Source of the DNA: Amoebophrya sp. A120
Lineage: Eukaryota > Protista > Dinoflagellata
Direction of reading: 5' to 3'
Assembly (NCBI GenBank): GCA_905178155.1
Contig: CAJINV010000002.1
Coordinates: 840,780 to 904,779, forward strand
DNA length: 64,000 bases
A program made the translations under genes and the position numbers. This document shows, one piece after another, positions 1 to 54,659 of the stretch. The notes under the pieces are model-generated. The model worked only from the letters and a program-made list of their open reading frames with translations. It searched no databases and was not told where the DNA came from. The stretch's first letter is position 1. Each line of letters begins with the position of its first letter.

Positions 1-3000
1 ACACCATCCTTTGGTCGTAGGTTATTGGATGGGGATTCAACCCCGGTAATCCCGGATTGAACACGTGTCCCTCTTCATCGTGTTTCAACTCTGATGGTTT
101 TTTCTTCTTGAGTTTTCTCTCTCTTTTCATCGGGAGAGCTTGTTTAGTATCGGGTTCTAACAGTTGCTGTTGCTCCTCTGGCGCGTTATTTTCGTCTTCA
201 AAGTCATCGTCTTCCTCAATGTCGATTTCCGCATCATTACCCGCTGCTTCGCCCTCTCCTTCGATGTAATTATCTGGCGGACCAATATTTCTATCACCGT
301 ATGCAGCTGCTGCATCATCGTCGTCACCCCCTTCGATGAAGTCCTCTTCTTCTAAAACCGTGTCGTCCACTGCAGCGGACTCCCCTTCCCCCTCCAGCAC
401 AGCTGGCCCTGCTGTTGCAGTAGTAGTTCTCACAGGTAAAGCGACCCCGTTGATCTGGGGTAAATCCAAACCGTTTTGCTTCACGACGTTGTCGAAGAGG
501 AAAAGTTCTTGCTCCTGTTCGGGGAACGAAGCTTTTGTTTTGGATCGTTCATCGGGGACGACTGATGCGCCGTCGACAAAGTTCTGCTGTTGTTCTTCAC
601 CATCCTCATCTTGTTCCCCATTGTCCTCGTCGTCCTCAAAGGCTAAACGGTGGCGGTGCTTTTCCTTCTTGACTGGAACCTCCTCGTTTTTCACATCAGC
701 CTCTACCTTGTCAACCTCAATCACAACGTCGGCAGGCAGAACTTCCTCCAAGACCGGGGGTGAGCCGATCTCGTCAAGAGCAGCTTGCTGCTGTTCCTGC
801 ATAGAAGTTGTGGGCGCTGGTATGTCAACGGAATCTGCTACAATCTGCACAGCTTATCAAGTGTAAAAATGTCTGGGTCTGGAAGAATGCGCGATTTGTC
901 ATGCAGATTTTCCATATCCCATGAGGTCTGGAATGCAGGACTTAGCATGACAGATTCTGCGCGATCTCTCTCATGCCAATCCTGCATGAGAAACTCCCTT
1001 CCGACTTGGTCAAAACTGGACGACTTTTGGTAATCATGCAATACAGATTTTTGCATGCTTCAGATTTCGCATGACAAGTTGCATTCTTCCAGACCCAGAC
1101 ATTTTTACATTTGATACAGCTTGTTCAGCCACGACCTGGTCGTCCATCGGGGTGGCGAAAACCAAATTGTTTATCACAAGAAAAAAGTGTTACAGTTACA
1201 CATTGTGTTGCAGGTCAAGCAAGACAGGCAAGCTCTGTCATGCCGGATATGCATAGGAGCCTCGTTTAATAGGTGTTTTCCCGTACTAGGATTTCTGCAT
1301 TACAAGTTTTCTCTCTCATGCAGAGAAATTTGTGTTGCTGAATTCACTACAAATGTGTAACTGTAACACTTTTTTCGTGGGATATTGTTCCCAACAGACT
1401 TGCTATTAGCCGGCGTGACAAAGTCCGCCGCACTCGCCGTACTGTTGTTCTGTTGTTGCGACACGACCGACACTTCATTCGCGGTTACAGAGACCATGTC
1501 GCCAGCACTCGGGAGGCTCTGCGACTGGTTATTTGTTACAGTACCATCCACCGCGTCCGGGGACTCGACGAAGGAGGACTCATAAGGGTTGTCGTTGTTC
1601 GCAGGTGGGTAGAGGTCGGAGGGGTTTTTTGTGGAAGAAAAGAGGATTTTCTCCGGGGAGACACTGTCGATTACGATGGCGGGGTTGGTGTTGCTGTTTT
1701 CTTGTACAGGTAGTTCTTCGGGAGCTGGAGTTGGACCTGTAGGTTCCTCTACTTGTGCAGCCGTTTGCAGCGCACCTGCATCAGCTTCTGCTTCCGCAGC
1801 AGCAGCAACAGGTGGCGGCGCAACAGCATCTCCCTCCATAACCGCGCGTTCTTCTGCAGTCGGTTCTGGGACCTGCTCGGCTGGCGGTACAACTACATCT
1901 TCCGTTTCACCGGTGCCGCTCCTGGCGCTTTGCTTGCTTCCCTCTTTGGTGTCTTCTGCTGGCGGAAGTAGGGTTTGTTCTGCGGGCAGCTCGGTTGTTG
2001 CTGCGGCTTCATCAACAGCTCCAGTAAAAGTATCGTCTACAGCAGGGAGCGACAGTTCTTCTGCAGCAGGAGCTGCTGTTTCTGCTTCGCCGACAGCGGG
2101 AGCAGCGGGCTCTGGTTGTTCTGCGGTAACAGGTGGCTCTTCAAAAACTGGTGGCTCAGCTGCACCCTCCGTTCCACCCTCCGTCGGCGCATCAGCATCT
2201 GCAGCCTCCGCTCCTCCGTCTGTCGGAACAGCTGGAGTCTCTTCTGCCCCCTCAGCTTCCCCAGGTGCTGGTGCAGGATCTCCAGGGGCAGCGGTGGTGC
2301 TTTCAACAGCATCAGCAGGAGTGGCTGCAGTGTCCGCAGGTGGAACTTCTTTTGGGGCGTCTTCACTTTCTACGACGGCTTCTGTTGCCGCTGAAACTCC
2401 AGGCTCTTCTTCCACTATCTCCTCCTCCACGACCACATCATCCCCACCGGCAGCTTCACCCTCCGCTTCCAAAACCTGCGGTTGTTCATGTTGACCAACT
2501 GGCATGACAGCTGGTATGTCTTGCAATACGGATTGTTCAACAGGAGCGGAGTTGTCCGGCTCTACTGGAGCGGCGTCTGGGTGTGCCGCGACGTCTTCTG
2601 CTGTTGCAGCTACTGCTCCATCAGGTGGGGCTGGAACTACGGGTGGCTGTGGCTCTACTAGAGCCGTTTCATCTACTTCCTTCGCCGGAGCAGCAGAAGC
2701 TGTAGCGACTGCAGTTTCATCATCCAGAGGGACAACCACTTCATCTGCAGAAACTGCAACTGCGGGCGCAGCACCAGGTGTGTCAGTTTCTGCTGCTACT
2801 GGAAGTGGCTCCGCTACAACTTCGTCTTTATTTGCCGGAGCTGGAGCAGCAGGTGCACCGGCTTCTGGGTCAACACCCGATGGTGCGTCTGGTGTTGCGG
2901 TTGCTTGTTCCTGTGGTACTTCTTCCACCGGAGCAGCAACAACAGGATCTTCTGCACCAGCTGCGACACTTGTAGCTGCTGCTGGAACTTCTCCTGTACT

Positions 3001-5644
3001 AACAGGAGCTGGCTCAACTACACCTGGTGGCGCTGCAGCAGTGTCGCCACCGGTCTCTCCCGCAGCAACCGCTGCTGCTGCTTTCACTTTCTCCTGCCTC
3101 TCCCGTTCCTCCACCGCTGCTAATTCCCTTCTACTCTTCCGAAAAGCGTCCAATGCGGCGAATCTGGAGCTAGAAGAAGACACCTTCGATGCGCCGCCGA
3201 GGCTTTTGGTGTCGTCATCTTTGCTGTTCAGAGCACCTTTATCCGCCAGCAAATAATTCGCTTTCATCGGACTGGCACTATCCGGTGTCGGTTGCATGAA
3301 AAAGTTGTTCGCGTAGTTATCCGGAGTGGAGGCTGATTGTGTTTGTGCTAGAAGACTTTCGGTAGGAACAGCTACTACACCAGGGGAAGGGACTAGTACT
3401 GTTGGTTCCACGCCAGCACCAGCAGCTCCCGCTGTTTGCTTGGACTGCGCACCACCAGCACTGGGCGACGCGGTTTTGCTATCCGCCTTCACCTATCAAA
3501 TGTAAAAATGTCTGGGTCTGGAAGAGCGCACGACTTGTCACGCAGCTTGTCCATGACCCATGAGGTCTGGAATGCAGGACCTAGCGCGACAGATTCTGCG
3601 CGATCTCTCTCGTGGATGCCTATCCTGCATGAGAAACTCCCTCCCGACTTGGTCAAAACTGGACGACTTATGGTAATCATGCAACACAGATTTTTGGATG
3701 CTTCAGATTTAGCATCACAAGTTCCAACCTTCCAGATCCAGACATTTTTACATTTGATATCACCAATTTCATCGCAGCTTGCCACCGCCTTTGACCGGCG
3801 GTTCCTGTTGTCCCGGCTCTTGTTGATTTGGCCAAGACTTTCTGCCACGAAGCGGGCAATTTCTTCTGGTTCTCGTCTAGTTGTGGTTGCTTCTGAGATG
3901 TGTTCGCATCCGCAGCTGGTGGCTGCTCCGTTACAGCAGGACCGGCAGGAGGATCTTCTGGACCACCAGTCACAGTTTCTTCTTCCACTGCTCCTTGTTC
4001 ATCCATCGCCTTTTCTCCAGCACCAGCATCCGCTCCTTCTTTAAACACACTGTCTTTCGACGGCAAGACCTTCTTGCTTTGCGCTGGAGATGTTGTTGAA
4101 GGCGGCTTCATCTGCTCTGCCGACCCGGCAGTTCCTGCGGGAGCAGCTCCTGGTGCGGGAGTTGGTGTAGTGCCTGGACTTGTCGCGCCATCCACACCAG
4201 TTTTCGCCCCTGCTTTATTATTACTCTTCTCACCAGCAGTTGCACTTTTCTTCGATTTGCTACTGCTCTTCGACTTCCCGCTCCTACCACTAACCCCCGA
4301 TTTGTTTCCCACCGTCGACGCCGCGTAAACATCGATCTCCTCAAAATGATGCACCTCCTTCAACAGTTCGTTCTCGTGTACCGTGTCCACGTGTTTGAAA
4401 TGATCAGACACGTAGTTCTGCTGCATCCCGCCGCCATCAAATGCCATCGAAGCTAATCCCCCAGTCCCGTAACTCTTCGGTTTTTCCTCCGCACTGAACC
4501 CTTTCGGATCGACGAGTTTGAGCTTTTTCAACTTCTTCTCAAACTTCCGCCTCTTCTCCGGATCCATGTTCGCGAACTGATTTTCAAACGTCGGTAACTC
4601 ATTTCCCACCATTTTCGACAACAAATGTCGATCTAAATGGTGCTCCGCGCCGGCGGTTAGGGTTGAAACATCCCCGGATTTTTTCACGAACGGGTCGTTT
4701 GTGGAAAGCGGATGAGTTTGGTAGTAGTTTGCGTAGGAGTATGCATTGCAAAAGCATTTTGCACTAGTATAAACCGCATGACAAATTTTCTTTAAAAACA
4801 AAACAGAAGTTTTTGTCATGCTGAAAAACCTAAAGACAGACATCTGTCATGCATGATTGCAATTAGTACGAGTGCGATACAACTTTTGCAGAGCATAAGG
4901 AGACCTGCTCGTGTTCGATCTCCTGCTTGGATTTTTGCTTCTGAGGAACGACAGGTTGATTTTGTGGAGCTTGTTGCTGTCCCGCTGATGATTCCCCACC
5001 GGCGGAGGAGGTTGCAAGTGGTTTTTCCCCCGGTAACATCATCTTCTCCGGGCCGATCTGCTCAATACCTTCGAAATGGTTTGCAACATTCATCCCCGCT
5101 GGGTCGTGCGCTAAGCTCGCTAAGCTGTTTTTTTTCACTTTCGAATATCCATCGCAAAAGCATCGCACTCGTAGTACTGAATCGTAGTCACGCATGATAG
5201 ATCTACTTTTCTACCTCATTTAGCATGACAAACTGCACTTTTGTTTGATCTGGACAAAATTTGTAATGCAATTTTTACTAAAACTAAATGCGATTCCTTT
5301 GCAATGCATACCGGACTGACGTCGACTAACTTCACCTTCGATTTTTTCGGCTTTTTCTCCTTGCCGGTGTAAACGTTGGAGAAGTCGTTTTTGAAATCCG
5401 GTAGTTCGTTTCCGATTAATTGCGACACCATGTCCCTTTCAATGTGTCCCTCCGCGCCGGCCGTGGTGTAACCCGCGGGGTGGGCTTTGATCGCATTTTG
5501 CACCGCCAGGTCGGGTTCTTCGGGTTTGTAGAGGTTGGAGGCAGTCGTCGAGGCTGCGCCCTTTGAACGATGAAACACCTCGATCGGGCGGAGGGTGGAG
5601 GGGTCGGGCGCACCCGGGAACTCGGGCGGCTGCTGGTCGGACAT
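1..5644 (-). CDS. Large Ala/Glu/Pro-rich hypothetical protein, 6 exons, runs off the left edge of the window
   Basis: ORFs 5216-5644, 4863-5195, 3677-4843, 1300-3492 and the frame below 854 join in frame after removing 5 TIR elements plus one TSD each (e.g. ...KLV|KADSK..., ...SVGN|NLVFATP..., ...AEQA|VQIVADS...). Confidence 0.8.
855..1116. mobile_element. Introner family A (TIR TATCAAATGTAAAAATGTCTGGGTCTGGAAG)
   Basis: ~35-bp TIRs, exact 5-bp direct repeat CAGCT, frame restored on removal. Confidence 0.9.
1172..1384. mobile_element. Introner family B (TIR TATCxCxxGAAAAAAGTGTTACAGTTACACATT)
   Basis: TIRs, direct repeat TTGTT; sister copy at 52069. Confidence 0.9.
3494..3759. mobile_element. 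Introner family A
   Basis: TIRs, direct repeat TCACC. Confidence 0.9.
4740..4897. mobile_element. Introner family C (TIR TATxxxxTGCAAAAGTATCGTACTCGTA)
   Basis: TIRs, direct repeat AGGAG. Confidence 0.85.
5146..5310. mobile_element. Introner family C, degenerate direct repeat
   Basis: TIRs; flanks TCGAA/CCGGA; frame restored. Confidence 0.75.
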
Positions 5645-9555: not shown

Positions 9556-11177
9556 TCAATTATCTCTATCATCCCTGACTTCGTCGGGTACGTTCATTTT
9601 CCCCTGGTCCGCCCCTAAAGCGGCCAGCACGATACACAACAAAATCGCCAGTGTGATGAACGTATGAACTGCAAAACTATCGCACTCGTATAAATCAATG
9701 CATGACAAATTCCCTCAGCGCGAATAAAAATAAAAATTGTAATGCGGATTTTGTAATGCATGATCGCAATACGAGTACGATACTTTTGCAGACGATAGAA
9801 CGCACACAGCATCTGCACGCACTTATCACTCGCCGCTCCCCGCATCAACCCGCTTACCACATGTCTCGTCCGCTGGAGTGTGTTCTATCAAATGTAAAAA
9901 CGTCTGGGTCTGGAAGAGTTGGAACTTGTCATGCGAATTCTGGAATACGAATAGGCAGAAATTTGTATTGCATAAGCGCCAAAAGCTTCCCATTTGTTGC
10001 TATGCAAATAGGGAATTTCTCATGCGGAATAGACATCAGGAGGCCTGCGCAAAACCTGTAATGCTTCTGCGTGCATTAGAGACCAGCTGCGTGATGGTGA
10101 TCCAGAAGATGCATGACAAACTCCTGCAACCTTCCAGACCCAGACATTTTTGCATTTGATATGTTCTGCACGTCGTCCATCTCCTGCATCGTCCTTCCCA
10201 TCCGCTCCTCGTGTGCGTGCATCGTTTGTAACGACCTAGTCCCGATCTGCTCCGCGTCTGCGGCCATCCGGAGAATCCGCTTGAGCGACTCCTCTGTTCT
10301 GTCCTGCAATTTATCCCCCAGTTGTATCGCACGGTTGGATTGCTGTTGCAGCTGAAACTGGCTTGATCCTGCGCTGTTCATCTGCGGGTTTTCCGGATCA
10401 AATTCCGCCCTGACATCGTCTAACCTCCGCTGGTCGACTTGTTCCATGTTTTCGTATTTTCCGAGCAGGTTTTTCGATTTCTGCTGGTTCGTGGAGCGTT
10501 GGATCTCCTTTTTCCGGAACTCCAGCTCCGTTTGTTGCTTCTTCAGCTCGGAACGGAAGTCGGAGAGGGTCTGGATTTGTCGTTGTATTGGGGTTTTGCA
10601 TTACAGAAGTACGACTCTATCTCTAATCGTGTCCTGCATGACAAAAACCTAACAAGCTGCTGCTATGCATGACAAACAACACCTCAGAAAATACCTGTTC
10701 ATACCCGCCCCGAATGACCTCATCCTTGCAGGCGCGGAGCTCCAGCTGCAACGCTTCCAGCAAGTTACGAATATGATGTGCAAAAGCATTGTACCACTCG
10801 TAGCATTGGCGGTACTGCATGACAGATCGACTTCCGTATGCTAATCAGCATGACAATCTCGTCCACTTATTTCCATGCTAGTAGGCGTCAAACTTGCAAT
10901 GCAGTTCCCACTACTAGTAAGTACGATGCTTTTGCGATGCATAACGACACCTCGACACCAGCTGATTACACACGCGAATTTGCGCGGCGGCTTGTCGCGA
11001 CTTTTCCTGTTCCACGTTAGGGTTTTTTGAGGAGGAGCTGGAGCTCGAACTCCCGAAGAGACCACCGCCGCCGCTAGGTCCTTGTCCCTGCAACTGCTGG
11101 ATCGCTTTTTTCAAATCCTCCAGTGCGTCTTTTATCCCCTGCTCCTGGTTTTGCAGGGCTAATTTGGAGATCGACAT
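9556..11177 (-). CDS. Qb-SNARE, NPSN/Vti1-like, tail-anchored
   Basis: Spliced product has a helical N-terminus, a SNARE heptad (QDRTEESLKRILRMAADAEQIGTRSLQTMHAHEERMGRTMQEMDDVQN|TLQRTRHVV), an ASDKC motif resembling NPSN ATDKC, then a TM segment (MLCAF|ITLAILLCIVLAAL). Four introns; the one at ~10586-10692 is degenerate. Confidence 0.8.
9663..9797. mobile_element. Introner family C
   Basis: TIRs, direct repeat GAACG; interrupts the SNARE TM helix. Confidence 0.88.
9886..10161. mobile_element. Introner family A
   Basis: TIRs, direct repeat TGTTC. Confidence 0.9.
10772..10943. mobile_element. Introner family C
   Basis: TIRs, flanks ACGAA/ACGAC. Confidence 0.8.
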
Positions 11178-11734: not shown

Positions 11735-13939
11735 TCATTTCATCAAAACGTTTGACATCATCATATCTGCCGCACCTCCTCCTCCACCAGAAGAAGACGC
11801 GGAAAAACCACCAGCACTACTTCCGCCCATCATTCCCGCCCCTATCCTGGACTCCTCCCCCACAAAAGCGCTCAAATCCGTCTGCGCCGGCGGCCAGATC
11901 GGCATGCGAGGGTAGGTATCAAAAGTAAAAATGTCTGGGTCTGGAAACTTGTGATGCTGGGTGGCGTCTCATGATGACGCTACAAATGCTGGCTCAGCAT
12001 GACAAGTTTCTGCTCTCCTAGGTGTTGCCTATTCTGCATGACAAACTGCGTTTCTGCATCACAGAAAAACGGAGCTCTTGGGTAACATGCATGACAGATT
12101 TAAGAGTCATGCCAGACAAGCATGACAAACATGAATTCTTCCAGACCCAGACATTTTTACAGTTGATAGTAGGTGTTTGGCGGCGTGATGTAAAGCTGCC
12201 CCTGCTTGTTACCCGAACTCGAATTCATGTTGGACGCCAAAATCTGCCGTTCCATATATGCAATACAGATTTCCCGTACATGATGTACAAGATGCATCAC
12301 AAATTTCACCAATTTGGAGTGCCACACTTGTCATGCTAAACTAGGATCGAAACCCAAATTTGTCATGCAGAGGCCGCATTTGTACTACGTGTACGGGAGA
12401 TTTACTGTGGATACCAAATTCCCGCACAACACCCTGGCTTTCATTACCGGGGCGGAAGTCAGTAGCGCTTTGTTCCGAATAAATTCGTTTGACGGATCTT
12501 GGTTGTCTTCTGGTGTTGCAGAAGACGCAGCGGCTCCGGACACGTCGTCTCCTGGGGGTTCGGCTATCCCGCCTTCTTCTGGTGATAAGGTGCTCTCAGC
12601 GTCTTCTCCTGCGCCACCTCCAGTTGTTGTACCGTCTCCCTCTCCACCGCCTTCCTTCACCTTCGCCGCATCCTCCTCCGCTTCTCTATTCGCACTTCCA
12701 AAATCGGGTTCTACCTCCTTCTTCGTAACCAACAGCCAGTTCTTGAAGCGGTCGCAGGTTTTCCGCAAATTTTTCAGCAAATCCGAACTCTCGTACGACT
12801 TCTCATACTTCTCGTTCTCCGCCTGCCGGTAAGCTAAAACCGCGTTTTCCTTACAAGTATTAACTGCAAATAACGCATCGCACTCATATACAACATGCAT
12901 TACAAATTTCCTCAGCTGCATGAGAAAGATAATTTGTAATGCGGATTTACCTCAAGAAAAGATTTGTAATGCATGATTACAATTACAACGAGTACGATAT
13001 TTTTGCTGTTCATAGCAAGACTGTCCGATCTGCCAGTGTTTGGTCGCGATGGTTTCGTATCAAATGCAAAAGTGTCTGGATCTGGAAAGTTGGAACTTGT
13101 GATGCTGACTTTGGACTCTAAAAAAATCTGTATTGCATGACCAGCAAGAGGAGTCTAGTTTGTGCTACGCGGGGAGGGCGTTTGTCATGCGGAAATGGTA
13201 TCAAGAAAGTTGCCAAAAATCTGTGATGCTGGGTCATGCATTACAATCATCATGGGTCATGCCAGACAAGCATGACAAGCCTTCCATTTTTCCAGACCCA
13301 GACATTTTTGCATTTGATATTTCGAAATAGTTCGCCACTTGCGCGTACTTCGCCGCCTTCTGCGCAGCTTCGAAGGCGACGGACTGTTTTGTATCTGCTA
13401 GGTAAGTATCCTGTGCAAAAGTATCGTACTCGTAGTAATTGCAGTCATGCATTACAAAACTTTTTCTTAAGGTAAATCAGCATTACAAATTTTATTTCTC
13501 TTGCTGAAAGAATTTGCAATGCATTTATACGAATGCGATACTTTTGCAGTTCATAGTAAGACGGGTAGAGCGGTTCCGCTGCCTTCCAGGGGTCGGGGCC
13601 GGTGAGACCGGCGTACTCCTCTATCCTGAGTAAAAACGTACCCACACCATAGTCAAGATGGGGAATCGGCTAGACAAATCCACAAGTTTTGGCTGTTTTG
13701 CATGACAAATTTGCATTCGTAGTGTAGTGCGGTTTGAGCTAGCTCAGCAGCATCACAGATCTAGCATACCATGCTGATTGGAGCATGACAAATTGCAAAA
13801 CACGACTAGAAAATGCTTCTCATGGGGCTCCGCATGAGAAACATTTTCAGCATGCAGATTTGCATTACAACTCTGGTGTGGGTACGTTTTTACTGAGGAT
13901 ATCCTCCTTTTCGACATCGTCCGCCGGGGGCAGATACAT
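11735..13939 (-). CDS. Hypothetical protein, 7 exons
   Basis: MYLPPADDVEKE|EYAGLTGPDPW...SY|LADTKQ...YFE|TIATKHW...|KENAVLAYRQAENEK...GNL|ERQILAS...NTY|PRMPIWPP...LMK*; continuous frame after removal of six TIR elements. Confidence 0.7.
11917..12168. mobile_element. Introner family A
   Basis: TIRs, direct repeat GTAGG. Confidence 0.88.
12257..12413. mobile_element. Introner family F
   Basis: TIRs TATGCAATACAGATTTCCCGTAC / GTACGGGAGATTTACTGTGGATA; flanks CCATA/CCAAA; inverted sister copy at 25134. Confidence 0.85.
12858..13014. mobile_element. Introner family C
   Basis: TIRs, flanks ACAAG/GCAAG. Confidence 0.82.
13058..13319. mobile_element. Introner family A
   Basis: TIRs, direct repeat TTTCG. 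Confidence 0.9.
13407..13555. mobile_element. Introner family C
   Basis: TIRs, direct repeat GTAAG. Confidence 0.88.
13622..13901. mobile_element. Introner family E (TIR TATCCTGAGTAAAAACGTACCCACACCA)
   Basis: TIRs, direct repeat TCCTC; sisters at 40087 and 42651. Confidence 0.9.
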
Positions 13940-38087: not shown

Positions 38088-38343
38088 TATGCGTTGCAAA
38101 TATGTCTGGATCTGGAAACTTGTGATGCTGGTGGGAGAAAGACCAGCACACCTCAATTGGCTGCCAAGCATGACAAGTTTTGCAGATGCTTCAGCGTTGT
38201 CTATTCTGCATGACAAACCGGGCTTCTGCCTGAGAAAAGAACGGCGCTGTTTGGTAACGCGCAAGACAAACTTGAGAATCATGCTAGCAGAGCATGACAA
38301 ACCCTGCATCTATTTCCAGACCCAGACATATTTGCAATGCATA
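38088..38343. mobile_element. Introner family A variant
   Basis: TIRs TATGCxTTGCAAATATGTCTGG, direct repeat CTTCA. Confidence 0.88.
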
Positions 38344-38428
38344 CTTCAGTTGCAGCCCCAACAGCGTCTCTAACTCCGCGGCTTTCTGCTTGGCACCCTG
38401 CCTACTCGGAATGCTTGTCGTTGGCGAG

Positions 38429-38700
38429 TATGCATTGCAAATATGTCTGGGTCTGGAAGAATCCAAACTTGTCATGCAAACTCTGGATTACGCAAGAATC
38501 TGTGTTGCATGAAAGCCTCCAGAAGCTGTTCACTTTTTGAACTGCAAATAGCAAGCTTCTCATGCAGAGTCGGCATCAGGAGACCTGAACAAATCCGAGC
38601 TTCTCATGCTCTTGCGCGCATTCCAGAGCATCTGTGAGATCCAAAAGATGCATGACAAACTTGCAAACCCTTCCAGACCCCGACATGTTTGCAGTTGATA
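38429..38700. mobile_element. Introner family A variant
   Basis: TIRs, flanks GCGAG/GTGAG. Confidence 0.85.
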
Positions 38701-38969: not shown

Positions 38970-39115
38970 TATTCTGTGCAAAAGTATCGTCCTCGTATTG
39001 CAAAATCACGCATTGCAAATCTTTTTCGTAAGGTAAATCCGCATTACAGATTTTATCTCTCATGCTAAGGAAATTTGTAATGCATTTCTAGAGTACTATA
39101 CTTTTGCAGTTCATA
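38970..39115. mobile_element. Introner family C
   Basis: TIRs, flanks TCGCC/TCACC. Confidence 0.85.
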
Positions 39116-39304: not shown

Positions 39305-40985
39305 TCAAGCCCCCGGTACTTTCGCCAATTTCTTCCAGCTTTTCCCGCTGTTTTTCTTCGCCAGCGAGACCATCAACGATGCGTTTTTGTCCGTTAAATA
39401 CCACGTGCAATCGTCCACGTCGACGGAATCGAATAGAGAAGCTTTAAAAACCGAGACCTTGTCGTACAACACTTCTAAATTCTGCGTTTTAAAAACCACC
39501 TTGACTTTCTTTTTATCATAAGACGTCGGTTTGGTCTCCTGGTCCTCAAAGCTGATCGCCGACAGCGGGAAAGAAACTTCCAATTCTGATCCAGCGTCCC
39601 GCCACTCGTAGAGAATTGCGCCTTCGGATTTGTTGGTTGTCTCGACCCCGTCTTTCGTTCTATAAACGACGTTTTCTTTCGGGGAAGTGTCCTGACTTCC
39701 AGTTGTAATCGCCTGCTGCCCCATGCCAGGAAGGTTCATCAGGTTGGCGAGGTTCGGGTTCTGCTGCTGGTACTGTTGCTGCATGTCTTGCGCGGTCGAC
39801 TTGGTTTTGATTTGGTGCGCCGCAGCCTTGGCCCAGTCGCAGGTCAGGCTGTTGTTTTAGATTTCATGTTTGCAAATTTAAATTTGTGTTGCAGAAGACC
39901 ATCTGTCATGAACGAGAGTTAGTATTTTTACAGATCTGAACAGTTAGTTTATTACAGATCAAAAAAGATTCTGTTCCCAACATTGCAGCGAATCTAAATC
40001 ATCAAACATTTTCTATACCTCATATCCGTCAGTTTGAAATCCCTTCTCTTCCAAATGTCATCCTTCTCTGAATCTTCCACCCGACCTATCCTGAGTAAAA
40101 ACGTACCCACACCAGAGTCAGGATGAGGATTTTGCAACACAAACCTAGGAGTTTTGTGAGTCACGCATGACAAGTTGCACTATGCAGTGTAGTGCAGGTT
40201 AGCAAGTGCAGCCGCATCACAGATTCATCTGCTCATCCTGTTCACAGCATCACAAATTCCAAAACACGATTGGAAATGGCTCTCATGGGGATGCGCATTA
40301 CAAGTCTTCCTGTCTTTGCGAATCTGCATTACAACTCTGGTGTGGGTACGTTTTTACTCAGGATATGACCTAGAAACGCATCCCCGTGGAAAATCTGCCC
40401 GTAGCCGATTTGGTTCACAAAATCCGTGACCCGCGTATTTTTCGGGAGTTTTTTCGCGATGCCCTTATCGTCGACATAAACGTTCACGCCGATGTGCTTC
40501 GACTTTTCCGTTGGTAAACACAAAGGGAAGATGTCCACGGTTTGCATCAGGGTGATTTGTTCCATCATTTCCGGCGAGAGGTTGTTGATCTGGTCCGCGG
40601 AAATCCCCACATCGGGTTGTCCTTTTGCAGCAGCAGCCTTTCCCGCATCAGCAGCATTGTTGTTTTTCTTCGTATGAGAAAGCAGATTCTGCTTTAATAC
40701 GTCTTTATCCACGGTTGCGACCTCTCCGTCCACGTTCGCGGTGGATTTCGCGAAGTGTTTTTTCAGCAACTCAATAAACCCGTCTTCTCCTAGTTCCGCG
40801 ACGCCGTGGAATTCCAGTTCCTCAATCGGATCGGTTGCGACCGCGGGGACGTAGAGGTACTTGAAAGTGGAAGGTTTGGGCTTCGCCTCCGGGTCGTGGC
40901 CGGTGACTTCTTTGATATTGTCCAGCGTCATGTTGTGCAAGTCTTTCGCCATCTTGTCCATTGCGGGGGACGTGGTGGAGGGCAT
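39305..40985 (-). CDS. CS (p23/NudC-like, HSP20-fold) domain protein
   Basis: C-terminal YEWRD..ELEVSFPL...KVKVVFKTQNLEV...LFDSVDVDDCTWYL...LMVSLAKK..W. One family E introner (DAFLG|RVEDSE) and one GT-AG intron (~39849-40018). Confidence 0.8.
40087..40365. mobile_element. Introner family E
   Basis: ~32-bp TIRs, flanks CGACC/TGACC. Confidence 0.9.
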
Positions 40986-41988: not shown

Positions 41989-44900
41989 CTACTTCCCGCC
42001 ACCACCATTCATGACACCAATCGACACCGTCCCTTCTCCATTTACATTTTCCGCTTTCGGCACGGCGTATTTTTCCGAGAAATACCGACAAAATTCCTTC
42101 GCCAGCTCGTCCCGGCAGAACTTTATGTCGCTGTAAATCACCTCGAGGATGTCCTGCTCGGATATGGCCTGCTCAAACGTGGTTACAATCTTAAGCGTTA
42201 CAATAGAATCTGGAATTTGTATTACATGAAGAGCATGATGAACGCAGAGAGAATTGAGCTTTTCGCAATACAAATTTTGCCGGATTTCAGGTGGGTTTGG
42301 GACTCCGAAACTCGTCATGCACAGTCCTATGATAGTAGGCTACCTAGATCATGCAGCTCTTGCATCACAGATTTCCAGATTCTATTGTAACAGTTGAGAT
42401 TGTAACGTCTGAGCGGGTCATATCGGAGATTTTAACTTTCGCAGCTGAATTCTTCCTCTCCATGTGCTGCCTCGTCGCATTCGTCAACAACTTCATTTTC
42501 GGCAAGTAGTAACTGTAGTAGTTTTCGCTCAGCCACGAGCAAACCTTTGCGTTCAGCGTGATTTCGTCTAATAAACCTTCCGCGGTTCTTCCGGCGGTGC
42601 CTTGCTCCAGAGAGATCGTGCTGTTTTGGAGCAAAGCCGTGTGCTTCTTCTATCCTGAGTAAAAACGTACCCACACCAGAGTCAAGATGGAAAATCTGCT
42701 AGACAAATCGGCCAACTTTGCTTGTTTCGCATGACAAATTTGGACGCGAAGTGTAGTGCTGTTTGAGCTAGTTCAGCAGCATTACAGATCTAGTCTTTCA
42801 TGCTGATTGGAGCATGACAAATTTCAAAACACCCTTAGAAAATGCTTCTCATGGGGCTCCGCATGACAAACATTTTAAGCATGCAGATTTGCATGACAAC
42901 TATGGTGTGGGTACGTTTTTACTCAGGATATCTTCATGTAGTTGACGATGTAGTCCCATGCTCTGCAAAAGTATCGTACTCGTAGTCGTACTAATTGCAA
43001 ATATACATGACAATCATCATCCTCATTCAAAACAGCATTACAAATTTTGTCATGCTGAGCTAATCTGTAATGCAATTTATGCTAGTACGTTACTTTTGCA
43101 CAGGATAAATCCAACAATTCCTCCTGTTCATCCAGCCGCATCTGACGGAGTTTTGCTTCTTTGTCTTGCTGCTCCGCGTCCGGAACTGCATTGGATTCTT
43201 CTTCTTGCACGTTCTGCATCAACTGTGTGGAGGTGTTCTTGGAATTTTGCGTGGAGGAAGAAGCCGTCGTTGGCGGATGGGAGGAAGAAGAAGACCTGGA
43301 TGATTGCAACAGAAGCAGATCACGAAGAAGCGTACCACCTGGAAGGTTGGAGGGCGGGAGGAAGACCATCATTTTTTCCTCCGACTGCTTAGTTGTCTTC
43401 GTGGCTTGCTCCTGATTCCGATCGCTCCACATGTTGTTATTTGTTTCGTCCCCGATATTAGGAGCACCAGAGCCAGACTGCCCCGTTTGCAGCTGCAGCT
43501 CGTGCCTCCCTGCTCCGGCGCGCGGCGTGGTTCTGTAATCTTCATCATACCCGAGCCCTGGCGGCGCCTCTGTAATTCTTCCCGGTACTGCAGCAGCACC
43601 AGCTGCACCATCTACTTTGCGTGCAGCATCGTCTACTTTGCGTGCGCGTTCCGCGGTATAATCATAACTGCTCGTGGTCCTCGGGTCGTAGTAGTTGAGC
43701 CGACCTCTTTGAACCCAGTCGAAAAAGTCCGGACCAGGATCGAAGAAGTATTCGACAGAGGACGTTTTTTTGACTGCAACAATAGTTCTTCGGCCGCAAG
43801 ATGTTGTGCCGCTTGTACTACTTGGTCCACCTTTTTCGTACCACCAGAACCAGTTACACGACGCGTACGACGGAGTGTGCTGGTCTTCTTGCCAAAGCCA
43901 AGCGTGGTAATTGTAGTTGTGCCCGTAGAAGTTTTTCATCTCCTTCTCCGGGAGGTGCATTTGATATTCCACCTCCCCCTGCTGTTGCAGCCGGTAGTTC
44001 CAGGGCGGAACCCACCGCTGTCTCTTCTTGGGAGAGACACTTTGGGAGTAGACACCTCCAGCTCCTCCGCAGTTATAATTAGCGTGTCGGCTGCTCGACG
44101 TTCCCGTCAATCCAGCGTAGATTTCATTTTTCGCGTACTTCTGTTGTTTGACGGCGGAAATTATGAACTGCAAAAGTATCGTACTCGTAGTAATTGCAGT
44201 CATGCATTACAAATCTTCTTCTTAAAGGTAAATCAGCATTACAAATTTTATCTCTCATGCTGAGGAAATTTGTAATGCATTTATACGAGTACGATACTTT
44301 TGCACAGGATAGAAATTGCTTCTTGCTGCTTCTGCTGTTTCTCCTTTTTCTCTTCCAGACTCTTCTCATCGAGCTCCGCGAGGAGGGAATCGAGGAGGGA
44401 CTTTTTAGGTTCATCTTCTGCTACAAGTTCATCATCTGCCGGTGGGAACAACGTGCTGCTAGCAGCTTCTGCTTCTGGAGCGCGCACCACTTCTACTTCA
44501 TCTTCATCCGTACGAGACGATGAACCAGCACTTTGTTGCAACAGGTGTAGGATCGAGATGTGTTGCGATTGTTCCGGAGGAATGACATCATCCTGTTTTT
44601 CGGGTTCTCTTTCTTCTACGAAGACTTCAAGCTGCCCCGGTTCGACACCCACATAATTTTCGTTAGCCACAGAAGCGGCATCTCGACGTTGTTCAACACT
44701 GGAAGTGCAACTACTCGACGCATGAGACGGTCCTGGAGGCAGGGTGGAAGTCGTGGGTTCTTTCGCAAAAACTTTGGTGCTTATTTCCCCTTCTCGTCCT
44801 TCACCTTTCTTCAATTTCTCCGCAAGCTGCACCCCAAAAATCTTCGCTGTTTCATCCGCGGTCGCAGCCACCGGCGAGCTGGTGGTGCGGAAGAAGTGAC

Positions 44901-46449: not shown

Positions 46450-49227
46450 CTACCTCCCCGCCATTCCTAAGCAGAAGCTGGTGCAGATCGCCCTGAGCAC
46501 CCTCCCAGGGTTATCCGGTAGGCAACTACAAGAATGCGCGCTGCGCTCTCTTCGGTAGGGCAAAACCAGATCGACGGCACTGACCTCTTCTGGAATCACG
46601 TCTGCTGGGTTAATGGGGAAAGTGAAGACAATTTGTAATGTCAACCGCGGAATGACTTTTAAATAATTCAAATCCACCTCTCCCTCGTTTTCATCGTCAC
46701 CATTTCGTCTCACCAGCGCCGGACAGGTCATAGCCGCGCTCATCCTGGCCCGCGGTCTTCCCGACGAGTCCTCCAGGACTAGTTGTCCCTTGATGGAATC
46801 GCCGAAAATGCTAGCCAATGACGTCTATCAACTGTAAAAATGTCTGGGTCTGGAACATTCTGACACTTGTCATGCACGTTTTGCATGAGCCCTGATGTCT
46901 GTGATGCATGCCCTAGCATGACAGATTTTTTCAGAGCTTCTTGATGCCTATTCCGCACGACAAATGCCCTCTCCACGTAGCAAAAATTACACTCCTTTTG
47001 CTACTCACGCAATACAGATTTTTCTGGAATCCAAATGCAGCATGACAAGTTGCATTCTTCCAGACCCAGACATTTTTACATTTGATAACGTCTCTGGCCG
47101 ATGCCTGGGGTTTTGCAAGTGCTCTTTACAGATAGTTGTCAACTTCTGCCGAAAGGCTCGCTCCGTCACGGATTCGAATGGTCGTTGTGGCCACTGATGG
47201 TCGTAAGAATTATCCCCGCCGTTGTTTGGACCAGCAGAAATTTCCGCAACTTCTTGCAAAAACCGAATCGGCACCTGCGTTGCGGTAATGGAGACAGAGC
47301 GCGGGGCGTCAGAGAGCGGTGGCACTTCGTTGTCAGCAAGATGTTGAACTTGAACCCCCGCCGCCGCACCACGACCACCTCTGCGGTCACCCCGAATCAA
47401 TATCGGCACGCGCCCCTCTGCTGGCCCAATCTGATACGTCATGACATTCCGATGCCGTGTCGCCCGTTGCACTAGTCTCGCCTGACTCTCCGGCACTCTG
47501 TAGACTGCTATCGAGTTGGTTGCGAAATAATCGTAGTTCTGACCGAGTTGCGCGATTTGGTAATCTCTCCGGAGGAGGATATTCGGTACCGGCTCCCCGA
47601 GCATGAGAGGTTGCACCGGCATCTGGACGAAGTGCGATTTCCTTGCCAACGCTTGCTCGAAGAGGCTGAAAAACTGCTTTAACCTCTGTTTCTCCCTCTC
47701 TTCAATGTCTTCGGTGTAATTTTCTTCTCCGTATCCGGGCATGAATCCGTGGTCGAATTGGGGTTTCCTAACCCGGAAATACGCGGTGAATTGGTCGAAC
47801 ATGGAGAAAGCCGGCGCGCTTGATGACGATGTTGCAGCTCCAACAGCAGCTCCGACCGGCTCGGGCGTGGGACCTGTACTGTCTTGCAAGGTCCGGAAGT
47901 ACTCGTCCCATAACTGTGTGGAGGTTTTTTTCGCCAGGTTTGTCGTGTGGTCGAAATTATCGTTTGTGTAGTTACTATCAAGCCCCTTGTTGTGTTCCCG
48001 AACCAGGGCGTGCAGGAAAGAGGAAAACACCGTCGGGCCCTGCTTGATCACCGCTGAGATCTCGATGGCTTGGGGTGGTTCGGACAGAACGGCATCTGGC
48101 ATATTTTCCGTTCCGCAATGACGTTGACAGGCTTTAGAAGTCCAGACCTCGCCGGATGAAGTAGTACGAGTAGTCTCTGATGGTACTATCGCATCAGAAA
48201 AACCAGACGCAAGTGCTTGGTTGTGGTAGAAGCAACTTTCATCTTTCGACGATGCTCGGGTGCTGGGTGTCACGACATCTTCAGAAAAACTCCTGCTGGC
48301 CGTCTTCATATTGTTTCCTTTCCCGCCTGCACACAGCACCTCCCCGAGTGGCGTGGCCCCAAACAATTCCGCATCCAAGACCACGTGCGCTGGCGCTGGG
48401 GCATGGGGACTACAACTATTGCTGTTCAAAAGCAGTGTGACGGATAAGTGTTGCTCTGGGAAGGTGACAGATTTCTCCTCTTTCAGAACCGCCTCCACTT
48501 TTTGCTTCAGCTCCCCCACCGTCCACGAGTGCCAGTTGTGTTTTGATTGATATAAATCCTCGAGATATCAAATGTAAAAATGTCTGGGTTTGGAAGAATG
48601 CGCGATTTGTCATGCAGCTTTTCCATGACCCATGAGGTCTGGAATGCAGGACCTAGCATGACAGATTCTGTGCGATCTTAATCTTTCTCATGCCTATCCT
48701 GCATGAGAAACTGCCTCCCGACTTGGTCAAAACTGGACGACTTTTGGTAATCACGCAACACAGATTTTTGCATGCTTCAGATTTAGCATGACAAGTTGCA
48801 TTCTTCCAGACCCAGACATTTTTACATTTGATACGAGAACTAACTCCCCGTTCATCGCTTTGCGGATACGGAGGGGAGGTTCGTATAATCGGTATTCGTA
48901 TTGTTCTTCTGTGGGAGATGTTGAATCATTGCCGCTTTTCGTTTTCGACGAAATATTAAACGGACATCGGCCCCCTCCTTCGCAAATCGACTTGTTTTTC
49001 GTGCAGCATGAAGATGATCTGCCTGAGGACTTGGAGCAACACCTGTTTCGCCGAGGAGAGGGCGAATTTGATTTTTTTCTCCACCTCGAGTCCTCCACCG
49101 GCTCTAGCACCAGCTTCCGGGTTGTCTGCCGGTCGAAATAGGTGCGGACGGCCAGAACTAATACCGGAGGAGCATTCAGAATGCTCACCAGAGAGGACAG
49201 AACGAAGAAGCAGGAAAGGGCAGTCAT
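46450..49227 (-). CDS. Hypothetical protein with a signal-peptide-like N-terminus, 3 exons
   Basis: MTALSCFFVLSSLVSILNAPPVLVLA...; joins LVL|EDLYQSKHNWHSWTVGELKQKV and RPET|SLASIFG restored on removal of two family A elements. Confidence 0.7.
46826..47087. mobile_element. Introner family A
   Basis: TIRs, direct repeat ACGTC. Confidence 0.9.
48566..48833. mobile_element. Introner family A, very similar to the 855-1116 copy
   Basis: TIRs, direct repeat CGAGA. Confidence 0.9.
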
Positions 49228-49993: not shown

Positions 49994-52900
49994 CTAGTGT
50001 GCAGCTTCCATCTGCTGGACGTCATCCGGCCTTCTCCCACTTCTCTTCATCCTATCCTCCGGACTCAAGCCTTTTTCACTACTTCCATACAACGCCCATT
50101 CAGGTGTGGGCCGGGACCGCGACGTGTCATGCTGTATTGGATCTGTTGAGGCACTTGACGTCGCTGCCTGTGATGTTGTTGACAGCGCTCTGCTTATTGT
50201 GGGGCTGCTGTGGTCCTCTTGTTCGCCCGTATTATGTGCTGATGCAGTTTCCGCATGACAAGTTTCCCTTTCGAAAATCTTGTCAAAGTCGATCCACGTA
50301 TTCCACCGTCCAGTTTCCGATATCCTATGCAAAAGCACTGTCGCTGCACTCGTAGTAGTTGCGGTGATGCATGACAAATCTATGAGTTTTTATCTTATTC
50401 AGCATGGAAAACTGTATTTTTCTTCGTGGCAATAAAATTTATCGTGCAAAAATTTCTACAAGCAGTACGATGCTTTTGCAATGCATATCCGGACACTGCC
50501 AGCGGTCTTTCCTCGCCAGCAGTACCCCGCAGCTGTGGTGGTGCTCCGCCGCTAACCCGTATTGGAAGAACTGGAGGTGAGACGAGGCGGAATCGGAAGC
50601 ACTGCTGGTGCAGCCGAGAACATCTTCCGGTGAAGCGCCGTCATGTGCGGCCTCTGCAAGAACTTGCTTAGAATTTCGATGCAGTTCCGCTATCGCCTGA
50701 TTGATTTCCTCCTGCAATAACCTCGCGAACTCGCACACGTCCGAGTGCGTCGGTACATTCTTCTGGCTCATGCCGTGCTTCTCGAAAACTTGCGGTGCGA
50801 ACGTCGCGCCTTTCACCTCGATGAAGTCCGCTTCCGCGGTGAGAAGGAGATGCGCAAACTCGGCGGCACTATGAACTGCAAAAGTATCGCACTCGTAGTA
50901 ATTGCTATTACAATGCATGACAAATCTCTTTCCGAGGGTAAAACAGCATTACAAATTTCATTTGTAATGCTGAGCTAATTTATTGTAATCGCAATTTATA
51001 CTAGTACGACTACGAGGCTTTTGCATTTGATAGGCACGGTGCCTTGTACTAGGATTTATATTAGGACTGGTTCTACCCACAATTTCCGACACAGAAGTTT
51101 CACTTTCAGTCGCTGTCTTTTCTTTATCACGATGAGGCCCCCGACCTTCATCTTGTTGTAGCAAATACGTCAACCGTAAAACCGTCCTTGTTTTCGACCC
51201 CTTTCGACTAAACTCCGTGCGCAAAATCTGCAGAGATTTTTGCAACCTCTGCCAGGCATCCGCAAACAGTGGGCGGCCGACTTTTTTCAAATCAGGCTCG
51301 TTGCTCGCGTCTACGGACACGTAAAGCTGCGTGCAGAAGGTGTTGTTTGCTTTTTCCTGGGCCTCTTATCGCACAGAAAAAAGCAGGCAGGTCACATTCG
51401 TAATGCAAAAATAAACTCACAAAAATATGAATATCTGCACTGCATACCCTAAACAGCATGCTACGGGGCCGCCTATGACAAAATTTTCTGTGTGTTTATT
51501 CTTGCATCACAGATATGCCCTGCCTGCTTTTTTTCATGGGATACCTCTGCAAGGGTTATTAGCGAGTCGGGAAACTGGCCATTCGTAACGAGAAACGTGG
51601 AAATCCTTTTTTGCCACATCAGCTTCAACAACCTCGGCAAGTGCGGATACAGCACCGGCTCGCCAACGAGAGAGAGGGCGCAGTGACGCACTCCACCGGG
51701 GTTTTGACTGATTGTCATCTTGGGAAGAACTTCTTGTGGGGATCTACTCTGTGTCAGGGTGCTGTCTCGTGGTGTTGAAAATTCATCATCATCGTGGTTT
51801 GCCGCAACTACATCTTCATCTCCCTGTGCTTGCACTCCCACTGCACCTGTTCCGCGTGATGTTCTACCCAGTGCAAAAGTATCGTACTCGTAGTAATTGC
51901 GGTCATGCATTACAAATCTCGTTTCCAAGGCAAATCAGCATGACAACTTGCGTTTGTCATGCTGAGGGAATTTGTCATGCCATTCATACTAGTACGATAC
52001 TTTTGCACTTCATATGTTCCACGCCCCGATGCGGTCGCCGCAAACACCTCTGACACCCGGGTACTAGATATCGCAAGAAAAAAGTGTTACAGTTACACAT
52101 TGTCATGCAAGACTAGCAACAGAGACGACCTTTCTCATGCAGGAAATGCTTCGGATCCTCGTTTCCTTCCTGTTTTCCCTTATGATCTTCGCATTACAAG
52201 TTTTCTCTGCCACACAGAGAAAATTTGTGATGCAGAAACTCCAACAAATGTGTAACTGTAACACTTTTTTCTCGTGATACTAGAGACCACAGCTCTAGTA
52301 CTTCCGGTAACAACGGATCGGTCTTCTCTTGTACTACCCGCTGTGTGCTGGTTATCCCACGAAAAAACTGCCTCTCTGTGATGGTTTTGCAAGATCCGCA
52401 TCACAAGTTTGCTACACATGACAGGGACAATTTGCCATGCGCGCTTCCCAAGGGAAAACTAAAACACGCTGAAAAACCCAATGCCTTGCATGTGTAGCAA
52501 GACAAATAGTTCTGTGTTCCATTCTCTGCATGACAAGTTTACAGTGAAACAGTTTTTTCTTGCGATACTGGTGGTTTACATTCAAGCCGGACACCACCTG
52601 CTTGATGAATTTATGAACTGCAAAAGTATCGTACTCGTAGTAATCGCAGTTATGCATTACAAATTTTTTTCCGAAGGTAAATCCCCATGACAAATTTTAT
52701 TTCTCATGCTGAGGAAATTTGTAATGCATTTATACTAGTACGATACTTTTGCAATGCATAAAATTTTTTGCTGTGCAATTCCAGAGCTTTTTCCAGCACA
52801 AACTCCGGCTCGTCCGTCTCATATTCCTTTTTCCACTTTGTCGTCACCGGATTCGTGTGGTTCCGCCAGCAAAACACGCATTTATTCGCGCAGGCCAGGT

Positions 52901-54659
52901 TCGTATCAACCGCAAATATGTTTGGGTCATCTCGGAGATTGCAAGGCTTGTCATGCATGTTTTGCGTGAAGACCCATGATTGTCTGTGATGTATGCCCTA
53001 CCATCACAGATTTTTAACACCCTTCCTGATGCCTATTCCGCACGACAAACGCCCTGCCCGCGTAGCACAAACTGGACTCCGTTTGCTGGTCATGCAATAC
53101 AGATGTCTTTGGAATCCAAGCACAGCATCACAAGTTCTTGCAACCTTCCAGACATCCAGGGATATTTGCAATGCATAGTTCGGCGTCATCTCCATGCACT
53201 TGTGCGATTCGATGCCGTAGAACGTGTGCTTGTAGCACTGGCCATAATGCTATCCACAGAAAAAAAACTTACTATCCCAATCCACTTTTTGCATGACAGA
53301 CACGGAATTTTATGTATGTTTTGCATTACAAATTGGATGTGGATGGGTGTTTCTTCCTGGATAAGTGCTTCAGCGCGTTTTTCGTCCAGCGACAGAGTTT
53401 GACTGCGGAGTGGGACCCAATTAGCTCGTAGTTCTGCCTCGATAGGCTTTCCCGCTGTTGCGCCGTGGTCTGGGGGCGGAGTTTGAGGTTGACCCTGCTT
53501 GCTGGAGGTGAGGAGGGTGTTGCTCCTGGACCATTTTTGACAAGAGATGAGTGTCTTCGTCGTGGTTCCACTGGGCTGCGGTCTACAACTTCCACCCCAG
53601 GTTGTTGTATTATAGGTGCCTGGTCTAACACTGTCGCTCCGCCTCTTGTGGGCGGGGAAGAACGAGACGACGTTGCGGAGGAGCCTTCTGTATCCACAGA
53701 AAAAAACCCATTCACATCCATTTTTTGCATGACAAACACACGACTTCACGCGTGTTTTGCATGACAAATTGGATGTGGATGTGTGTTTTTTCGTGGATAT
53801 TCTGCTGCTGATGCTGTCGTCTTCGCCTCGGACGATGAACAAATAAGTGTTGATGACGATGAAGACGAGGATATCAAGAAGAAAAATCCCCCCTCCCCAT
53901 ATCACAGCGGAAATCTGTGATGAAGGTTTATGGTCACAAATCAGCTTTCCTATGCTAGAAGGGAAAAGAAAAAGATGCGGACTGTAGTCCTGGGTGGCGT
54001 GGGAAAGCCCTGCATCGTCAGCATGACAGGAGGCAGCTGGAACTGGGAAACAACATGATAAATTGCCTGCAAACGAGGCCACAACTGAGGCTCTTGGCCT
54101 TCTAGCAGTACAAGTCGACTATGTGTACTCAAATACAGCATCACAAATTTCGTTTTCGATATGGGGTGGGGGGATTCTTCCTTTTGGTGGAGGACGAGGA
54201 CGAGGGCCCAAACGCTGCCCAGTTGATGCCCTCGATCCGGAAGCGAGCGCTCCTCTCCTTCTGGATAAACTCCAAAGCCTCCGACGCGCCGTGTCGTTGT
54301 ATTTTTTGTGCTTGATGTGGTTGTGCACCACGTGCTGCAGATTTTTCGTGTTCATCGGCTTGTTTGAGCATGCCTGGGGAACAAGTGCTGTCATTCTTGT
54401 GCCTGATTGATGTTGCAAAGCCCTTCTTCCTCGACACCATGAACTTCAGCGAGTGAGCTGCTTCATGCTTCGCCGGAGTCGCAGCGGAGCAGGTTTCAGG
54501 TGCTTTATTTCTGGAAAGAACCAGCACAGTAGACGACGCAATCCTAAAAATCGGCTGCAAACGTGCTGCCACCAACCGCTCGTGACGAGGACCACAAGAA
54601 GACGAACCTCCCTGGAGCAGAGAGGACACGCTGCTGCGTGGATGCTGCACCAGCAGCAT
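49994..54659 (-). CDS. TYW1: tRNA 4-demethylwyosine synthase (radical SAM), 12 exons; start codon uncertain
   Basis: YELIGSHSAVKLCRWTK, CYKHTFYGIESHKCMEMTPN|LACANKCVFCWR (CxxxCxxC), VRHCALSLVGEPVLYP, STFLVTNGQFP, TQLYVSVDA, DFIEVKGATF, WNTWIDFDK and TPEWALYG all match TYW1. Confidence 0.92.
50321..50487. mobile_element. Introner family C
   Basis: TIRs, flanks TCCGA/TCCGG. Confidence 0.82.
50870..51032. mobile_element. Introner family C
   Basis: TIRs, direct repeat GGCAC. Confidence 0.85.
51367..51543. mobile_element. Introner family J (TIR TATCxCAxxxAAAAAAGCAGGCAGG)
   Basis: TIRs, direct repeat CCTCT. Confidence 0.87.
51865..52014. mobile_element. Introner family C
   Basis: TIRs, direct repeat TGTTC. 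Confidence 0.87.
52069..52279. mobile_element. Introner family B
   Basis: TIRs, direct repeat CTAGA. Confidence 0.9.
52353..52567. mobile_element. Introner with family B-related ends
   Basis: TATCCCACGAAAAAACTG ... CAGTTTTTTCTTGCGATA, direct repeat CTGGT. Confidence 0.82.
52612..52760. mobile_element. Introner family C
   Basis: TIRs, flanks GAATT/AAATT. Confidence 0.87.
52904..53177. mobile_element. Introner family A variant
   Basis: Direct repeat GTTCG; splits the conserved MEMTPN|LAC motif of TYW1. Confidence 0.87.
53251..53363. mobile_element. Introner family H (short)
   Basis: TATCCACAGAAAAAAA ... GGATGTGGATG...TGGATA; flanks AATGC/AGTGC. Confidence 0.82.
53691..53799. mobile_element. 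Introner family H (short)
   Basis: TIRs, direct repeat TTCTG. Confidence 0.87.
53872..54189. mobile_element. Introner family I
   Basis: AATCCCCCCTCCCCATATC / GATATGGGGTGGGGGATT inverted ends, direct repeat GAGGA, frame restored. Confidence 0.75.

Follow-up and report, generated by a model that had tools for sequence, protein, structure and literature searches.

The motif and its setting

How one short internal motif came to recur, in both orientations, across many families of transposon-like introns is the question raised by a stretch of 64,000 nucleotides of the Amoebophrya sp. A120 genome (contig CAJINV010000002.1, positions 840,780 to 904,779; hereafter the window), in which the exon at 39308-39850 is 100% identical to an A120 protein. 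The available text of Farhat et al. 2021 (PMC7789003) already describes the introner introns of A120 as a system of 1,954 repeat families with inverted repeats of the form TAT, seven variable bases and at least three A, with short direct repeats at their boundaries and with non-canonical splice sites, tens of thousands of introns being spliced without the GT-AG rule; the same text reports no transposase and gives both the splicing signal and the mobilising enzyme as unknown. The introners themselves are known; the internal motif, its spacing and the splice register are absent from the text passages and dataset rows searched. With moderate confidence, we propose from the sequence that the motif is a candidate subterminal double-stranded DNA site for one transposase, probably integrase-like, that would serve all families.

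The strict motif GCAT[GTC]ACAA has 114 matches in the window (68 on the plus strand and 46 on the minus strand) versus 2.1-3.7 expected under Markov backgrounds of order 1-3 and 8.2 under order 4, so that the originally predicted recurrence in both orientations stands well above background; the sequence GCATAACAA has a single occurrence. Most of the matches (93 of 114) lie inside 39 elements bounded by terminal inverted repeats (TIRs; 8,031 bp), 37 of which contain at least one, and the rest are found in decayed or truncated elements (nine), in old introns without clear TIRs (ten) and elsewhere (two). All but the last two, i.e. 112 of 114, are within approximately 11 kb of introns or element remains; the two stray matches, at 15640 and 50253, are apparently exonic, and the remaining ~52.7 kb is otherwise empty.

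By a weight matrix built from the 39 elements (site cut-off of 9 bits for counts in joined introns), four RNA-covered genes contain 83 sites in 4,344 bp of intron versus none in 6,700 bp of exon, and three intergenic stretches (14.8 kb) contain four sites, one of them within an element fragment, which agrees with the claim that the motif is rarer in exons and intergenic DNA. Each element has approximately two to five copies, and the motif is found also in canonical GT-AG introns of the window. The form first proposed, GCAT(G/T/C)ACAA(A), is enriched in its strict version, but the true motif is wider (consensus W-GCA-W-B-A-S-A-R-R-T), with a variable position that is never A in 460 sites. Its range also extends past the proposed limit of 53799, into the elements at 53872 and 63037.

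Elements and families

The 39 elements with clear ends are non-coding miniature inverted-repeat elements of 109-280 bp that start with TAT (in one case TAC) and have a run of A at positions 11-14. TA was required by the element finder, and the TAT-N7-AAA terminus is supported by a position profile of 232 element ends. The 5-bp target site duplication (TSD) is exact in 28 elements, has one mismatch in 10 and two in one. As these termini and the 5-bp duplication are common to all families, the description of the families as unrelated has to be abandoned. BLAST comparison places the 39 elements in 11 groups, for which the letters (A-J etc.) are our own and differ from those of the original prediction. 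Cross-family matches of hidden Markov models (HMMs) nearly disappear after masking of the motif, which is a weak test because matches between sister subfamilies disappear too. Family lengths are 113-316 bp with no obvious steps. The depth of the DNA run is ~30 in single-copy bins versus thousands to more than 100,000 in bins of young elements. The window elements thereby have the features of published A120 introners, namely TAT-N7-AAA ends, a boundary repeat, removal without GT-AG and genomic repetition, the last of which is not found for the old introns described below.

A metagenome scan yielded 122 loci from 6 of 64 parts, and 32 loci of one assembly (JACKZZ01) were examined together with 16 others. 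Among these, the element architecture was found only in the JACKZZ01 assembly, which contains the same families and further ones, up to 95% identical to those of the window. Because this assembly may be from the same species, its loci are treated as held-out loci and not as an independent lineage. After removal of duplicates, nested partial calls, two long spans and non-JACKZZ rows, the held-out set comprises 77 elements, of which 76 contain one or more sites and 74 two or more, frequencies that are inflated because many of the loci were retrieved by the motif pattern. One further locus (L049) is an unrelated tandem repeat and not an element, and viral contigs gave two matches to the end of family A, with no motif copies in either, and none to the end of family B, which look like chance. 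In locus L032, a family B element is stretched to 1,209 bp (433-1641) with its duplication intact; it was rejected as a coding element on the grounds that its interior reads like an insertion, as judged by reading and not by a scan for open reading frames (ORFs).

Spacing and conservation of the sites

At 72 of the 78 element ends in the window, the G of the first site is 33-53 bp away (null mean 21, maximum 34, in 2,000 draws), and the same holds for 136 of 154 ends in the held-out loci, with no site closer than 33 bp. Same-direction site pairs 30-33 bp apart are present in 17 of 22 families. The sites nearest to the two ends both point outward in families A, G and I, both inward in families B and D, and one each way in families E and J. 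Family J, the smallest (109-122 bp), consists of little beyond two ends and one same-direction pair. In all seven families with at least four members, motif columns are 0.86-0.98 identical versus 0.69-0.85 for the other interior columns and 0.81-0.93 for the TIR, and copy-private changes are fewer in motif columns than in interior columns in five of five families; the motif is evidently not decaying at the pace of its neighbouring bases.

It is extremely improbable that the motif has no function and was simply inherited from one ancestor or generated by internal tandem duplication. The families do share ends and probably an origin, but the order and orientation of the sites differ between families while the end distance is kept, and this explanation is already largely refuted by the conservation of motif columns above their neighbours and by the spacers of paired sites, which are no more alike than controls (identity 0.28 vs 0.265). 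The spacer comparison likewise rules out a tandem-duplication origin of the 31-bp pairs. The motif bears a weak likeness to part of the TIR.

The 30-33 bp spacing amounts to approximately three helical turns and, with a weak 10.3-bp phasing, could signify that the motif, with its spacing, serves a host architectural protein in bending DNA or positioning chromatin and has no part in cutting or splicing. Such a role is very unlikely for a motif that is highly sequence-specific, nearly absent from intergenic DNA and tied to the ends of elements whose lengths show no steps.

Splicing and orientation

Splice joints were obtained from contigs of four sequencing runs, presumed to be RNA, of one sample, and those listed are the best supported by depth, picked irrespective of the motif. 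They skip 22 introns, 18 with TAT..ATA ends and four of the GT-AG type, all of which carry at least two sites above 9 bits. None of seven joints checked is present in the DNA run, and removal of the introns restores long minus-strand frames (e.g., 1,529 versus 730 codons). At each of the 18 listed joints of the TAT..ATA type, the skipped stretch is the element and five further bases. Because the duplication has diverged at some junctions, the ambiguity shrinks and one common register fits: on the assumption that all junctions share one, the only register common to the 18 has its 5' cut one base before TAT and its 3' cut four bases after ATA, the lower bound resting on two junctions. Since the four RNA-joined GT-AG introns all begin with GTAT, the TAT end may stand in for donor positions +2 to +4. 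The ends of young spliced elements pair strongly (folding z -7 to -12). A motif-free intron is possible within 33145-33605, which an RNA contig spans.

The sites show no fixed orientation with respect to transcription. In 15 young spliced elements, 27 sites are sense and 36 are antisense; one gene has family B elements of either orientation, both of them spliced (12858 vs 13407); and in two of the 22 joined introns (10571 and 13622) no sense site scores above 9 bits. Sites run in both directions in 93 of 116 elements and in a single direction, hence unpairable, in 22. This freedom of orientation points to a double-stranded DNA site more than to an RNA signal and would make the former the simplest reading, as a single-strand RNA signal or an internal helix could hardly be general.

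Action of the motif in RNA, whether as a branch-point-like signal, as the site of an RNA-binding protein or as an internal helix, is improbable. The old introns lean sense (14 sites vs 6), elements that hold both orientations would expose a sense copy either way, and the motif contains U-N-A-C, which we take to be similar to the yUnAy branch-point consensus. However, a sense copy near the 3' end is not present in every intron, as 10571 and 13622 demonstrate; young elements are unbiased by strand, the family B site nearest to the 3' end is antisense, single-direction sites cannot pair, and the U2-paired branch-point consensus is unlike the motif, whose variable base is never A.

A candidate transposase site

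Enrichment, end distance, the 30-33 bp pairs and conservation in seven of seven families are in good agreement with one shared site for one trans-acting factor, as the original prediction held, which is thereby partly supported. Of the two kinds of factor that it offered, a transposase fits the young elements, and an intron-definition protein of the kind that binds single-stranded RNA is disfavoured by the splicing of both orientations and by the two introns without a sense site. In the proposed mechanism, one integrase-like transposase would move every family via the subterminal motif sites, which the protein would bind on one helix face, helping to build the TAT-cutting complex. As families diverge, the ends and the motif would be preserved by selection for mobilisation, so that diverged families would keep only these. 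In transcripts, the spliceosome would use the register given above (N/TAT and ATA-N4).

Several observations weigh against this proposal. Pfam searches of 24 ORFs of the window found no transposase or integrase, the only matches being to PARP, to CS and to weakly scoring domains, and the analysis yielded no autonomous copy. The conservation test is partly circular because the sites were defined on the consensus and help to anchor the alignment. Helical phasing of the sites to the element end is at most suggestive: outward sites follow a period of 10.3-10.4 bp from the end at the family level (R 0.44, 0 of 2000 jitters), but the phasing weakens to p 0.03 when related families are pooled and is not significant in the held-out loci (p 0.23), and there is none for inward sites. 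Likeness of the motif to the TIR exceeds the 95th percentile of the null at only 25-30% of family ends. Finally, the seven old introns hold 20 sites (mean of shuffles 0.15, maximum 2) with a mean score of 15.2 versus 15.0 in young elements and 79% of the young density, and selection by a transposase alone does not predict an undecayed motif there.

Old introns

The seven RNA-joined introns without good TIRs comprise three with TAT..ATA ends (TIR 11-16/30, TSD 2-3/5) and four of the GT-AG type. They have no match to the sampled families beyond the motif (best <19 bits), and depths near single copy (36 and 57) are found in the two bins where four of them lie apart from any young element. The ends of the GT-AG introns are not folded together (z -0.1 to -2.1); those of the decayed non-canonical introns still fold. 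As the motif is intact in these old immobile introns despite the decay or absence of TIR and TSD, it probably has a second, host-level use. Six of the seven are in one gene. The gene at 29930-31990 (minus strand) has seven introns, a high RNA-contig depth and a protein of 222 residues.

It is possible, though doubtful, that a host DNA-binding protein, perhaps a domesticated transposase, marks introns in chromatin for co-transcriptional splicing and replaces U1 small nuclear RNA, which was not detected in A120 according to the available text of PMC7789003; motif-carrying elements would then be tolerated in exons because they are spliced. Such a mark would account for the presence of sites in every RNA-joined intron and in none of the exons of those genes, for their persistence in the four TIR-less GT-AG introns and the three decayed non-canonical introns (at close to single-copy depth in bins free of young elements), and for the survival of a 30-32 bp pair in four of these seven. 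In locus L045, the motif is present in two further GT-AG introns, both supported by the reading frame; a third candidate in that locus has no frame support. On the other hand, the old introns, concentrated as they are in one gene, may be members of poor-TIR families outside the sample (22 families sampled versus 1,954 published). Moreover, GT-AG introns follow the end-distance rule less strictly (sites at 17-28 bp), the annotated GT-AG intron at 39849 has degenerate sites only, the decayed element at 33418 has no strict site, and the splicing of young elements is explicable by the pairing of their ends alone. If the factor was domesticated, the transposase site and the host mark are compatible readings.

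Comparison with known systems

Like miniature inverted-repeat transposable elements (MITEs) with subterminal repeats, the window elements have a motif repeated near both ends in either orientation and conserved like the TIR (seven of seven families). Subterminal repeats are exemplified further by hAT, CACTA and Sleeping Beauty. In the Emigrant/Lemi1 MITE, as far as the available text of PMC1636448 goes, the transposase binds short repeats internal to the TIR, whichever way they point, and their arrangement matters; the motif of the window differs in being common to 22 families with different TIRs and in occurring also in TIR-less host introns.

With the introners of the available text of PMC7789003, the window shares the organism, TAT-N7-AAA ends, boundary repeats, non-canonical splicing and division into families; that text mentions no internal motif and describes variable splice positions, whereas the window has a shared subterminal motif, a uniform 5-bp duplication and one compatible register. 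A120 family 38 and other TIR introners have a 5-bp TSD and TA/TA termini and are classed as TIR DNA ('Ginger' in the dataset) in the available text of PMC12130899, in the main text of which the word 'subterminal' is absent; family 38 is ~810 bp long with an ORF resembling Copia/Gypsy elements, whereas the window elements are 109-321 bp and non-coding. The IS3EU/GingerRoot elements (PMC10045372, available text) have TA..TA termini like those of the window, and their integrase-like DDE enzyme is a plausible mover, but their TSD is usually 6 bp versus 5 bp here, for which reason the window elements are not filed with them. The nonconventional introns of Euglena (PMC12501133, available text) resemble those of the window in being non-GT-AG genome-wide and in having ends that pair; their code is at the boundaries, whereas the window also has an internal, orientation-free motif.

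Other features of the window

The elements, introns and fragments are listed in Table 1. PARP catalytic-domain matches are found in two adjacent exons (14540-16912, minus strand). A largely motif-free stretch at 19-25 kb contains a ~30-bp repeat (~19314, ~20790, 21913-22050 in tandem, ~23235 and ~24500), which we take to be loosely similar to the dinoflagellate spliced leader; Rfam gave no match to it or to any other part of the window. A 33-bp repeat occurs at ~59248, ~60869, ~61362 and ~63107, and because its last copy abuts and truncates a family A element (63037-63106), the repeat may represent a terminus of some other mobile element. A dispersed repeat of ~50-58 bp lies near gene ends (~32732, ~34113 and ~39169). 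Two TAT..ATA units of ~228 bp (61467-61694 and 63391-63617), with no matching 5-bp duplication and one motif-like site each, lie in a larger direct repeat beside a self-complementary satellite (61750-62400). The segment 32845-34105 has double DNA depth and 3-bp indels, which suggests that this plus-strand gene is duplicated. RNA run X9 has ~140 reads on the final ~87 bp (48747-48833) of a family A element, with differing flanks and no exon cover, which may be from an abundant transcript of another locus or of a relative that retains such an element.

Table 1. Elements, introns and fragments of the window (TIR+TSD, catalogue of clear ends; sites, weight-matrix matches; RNA joint, RNA contig junction)
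Positions	Strand	Feature	Evidence
855..1116		family A element	TIR+TSD; RNA joint 848-1116; motif G at 50<, 91>, 130>, 184>, 215>
1172..1384		family C element	TIR+TSD, RNA joint, sites
3494..3759		family A element	TIR+TSD, RNA joint, sites
4740..4897		family B element	TIR+TSD, RNA joint, sites
5146..5310		older family B element (2 TSD mismatches), informative for splice register	RNA joint; family match 83 bits
9663..9797		family B element	TIR+TSD, RNA joint, sites
9886..10161		family A element	TIR+TSD, RNA joint, sites
10571..10694	-	canonical GT-AG intron, no TIR; 3 antisense sites at 28, 59, 97 from 5' end	RNA joint
10772..10943		B-like element	TIR+TSD, RNA joint, sites
11917..12168		family A element	TIR+TSD, RNA joint, sites
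12257..12413		family D element	TIR+TSD, RNA joint, sites
12858..13014		family B element, orientation opposite to 13407 in same gene	RNA joint
13058..13319		family A element	TIR+TSD, RNA joint, sites
13407..13555		family B element; sites 43>, 74>, 98<, 116<	TIR+TSD, RNA joint, sites
13622..13901		family E element; every site >9 bits antisense, still spliced	RNA joint
16126..16276		family B element	TIR+TSD, sites
16885..17106		family F element	TIR+TSD, sites
22880..22950 (approximate)		intergenic family B end fragment, one strict site	
25134..25290		family D element	TIR+TSD, sites
26285..26592 (approximate)		decayed family A element	HMM 68 bits
30090..30298	-	old non-canonical intron, TAT..ATA kept, TIR 11/30, TSD 2/5; 3 sense sites, one 32-bp pair	RNA joint
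30366..30600		family G element	TIR+TSD, RNA joint, sites
30665..30825	-	canonical GT-AG intron, no TIR; 2 sense and 2 antisense sites	RNA joint
30900..31138	-	old non-canonical intron, TIR 15/30, TSD 3/5; 3 sites	RNA joint
31248..31387	-	canonical GT-AG intron, no TIR; sense sites at 28, 58	RNA joint
31455..31680	-	old non-canonical intron, TIR 16/30, TSD 2/5; 2 sites	RNA joint
31736..31883	-	canonical GT-AG intron, no TIR; sense sites at 33, 82, 114	RNA joint
33418..33605		decayed family B element in plus-strand gene; no strict site	
35068..35223		family B element	TIR+TSD, sites
36021..36274		family A element	TIR+TSD, sites
36325..36540		family F element	TIR+TSD, sites
38088..38343		family A element	TIR+TSD, sites
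38429..38700		family A element	TIR+TSD, sites
38970..39115		family B element	TIR+TSD, sites
39849..40018	-	GT-AG intron of CS-domain gene; two degenerate sites only, no strict site	exon limits from annotated protein P0001
40087..40365		family E element; six sites, all one direction	TIR+TSD, sites
42163..42422		family H element	TIR+TSD, sites
42651..42930		family E element	TIR+TSD, sites
42957..43107		family B element, left end altered	HMM 100 bits
44162..44311		family B element	TIR+TSD, sites
46826..47087		family A element	TIR+TSD, sites
48566..48833		family A element	TIR+TSD, sites
50321..50487		family B element	TIR+TSD, sites
50870..51032		family B element	TIR+TSD, sites
51367..51543		family I element	TIR+TSD, sites
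51865..52014		family B element (TAC end)	TIR+TSD, sites
52069..52279		family C element	TIR+TSD, sites
52353..52567		family C2 element	TIR+TSD, sites
52612..52760		family B element	TIR+TSD, sites
52904..53177		family A element	TIR+TSD, sites
53251..53363		minimal element of family J; same-direction site pair with 32-bp spacing, end distance 41 bp on both sides	TIR+TSD, sites
53691..53799		family J minimal element	TIR+TSD, sites
53872..54190 (limit approximate)		element of family also in second assembly; right end damaged	HMM 298 bits
59712..59845 (approximate)		decayed family B element	HMM 63 bits
63037..63106		truncated family A left end, one strict site	

Implications for A120

Were the motif shared by every family, the 1,954 published families would form one transposon system. 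The motif also provides a bait for the responsible protein and, together with the N/TAT..ATA-N4 register, a splicing code specific enough to test. Host selection for the motif in dead introns, if real, would mean that introns are marked at the DNA level. It seems unlikely, on present indications, that A120 defines its introns partly on DNA, with a strand-free GCATBACAA-binding protein, probably transposon-derived, recruiting a U1-less spliceosome that cuts N/TAT and ATA-N4; if true, the subterminal site of a transposon would be a general intron mark of a eukaryote, canonical introns included.

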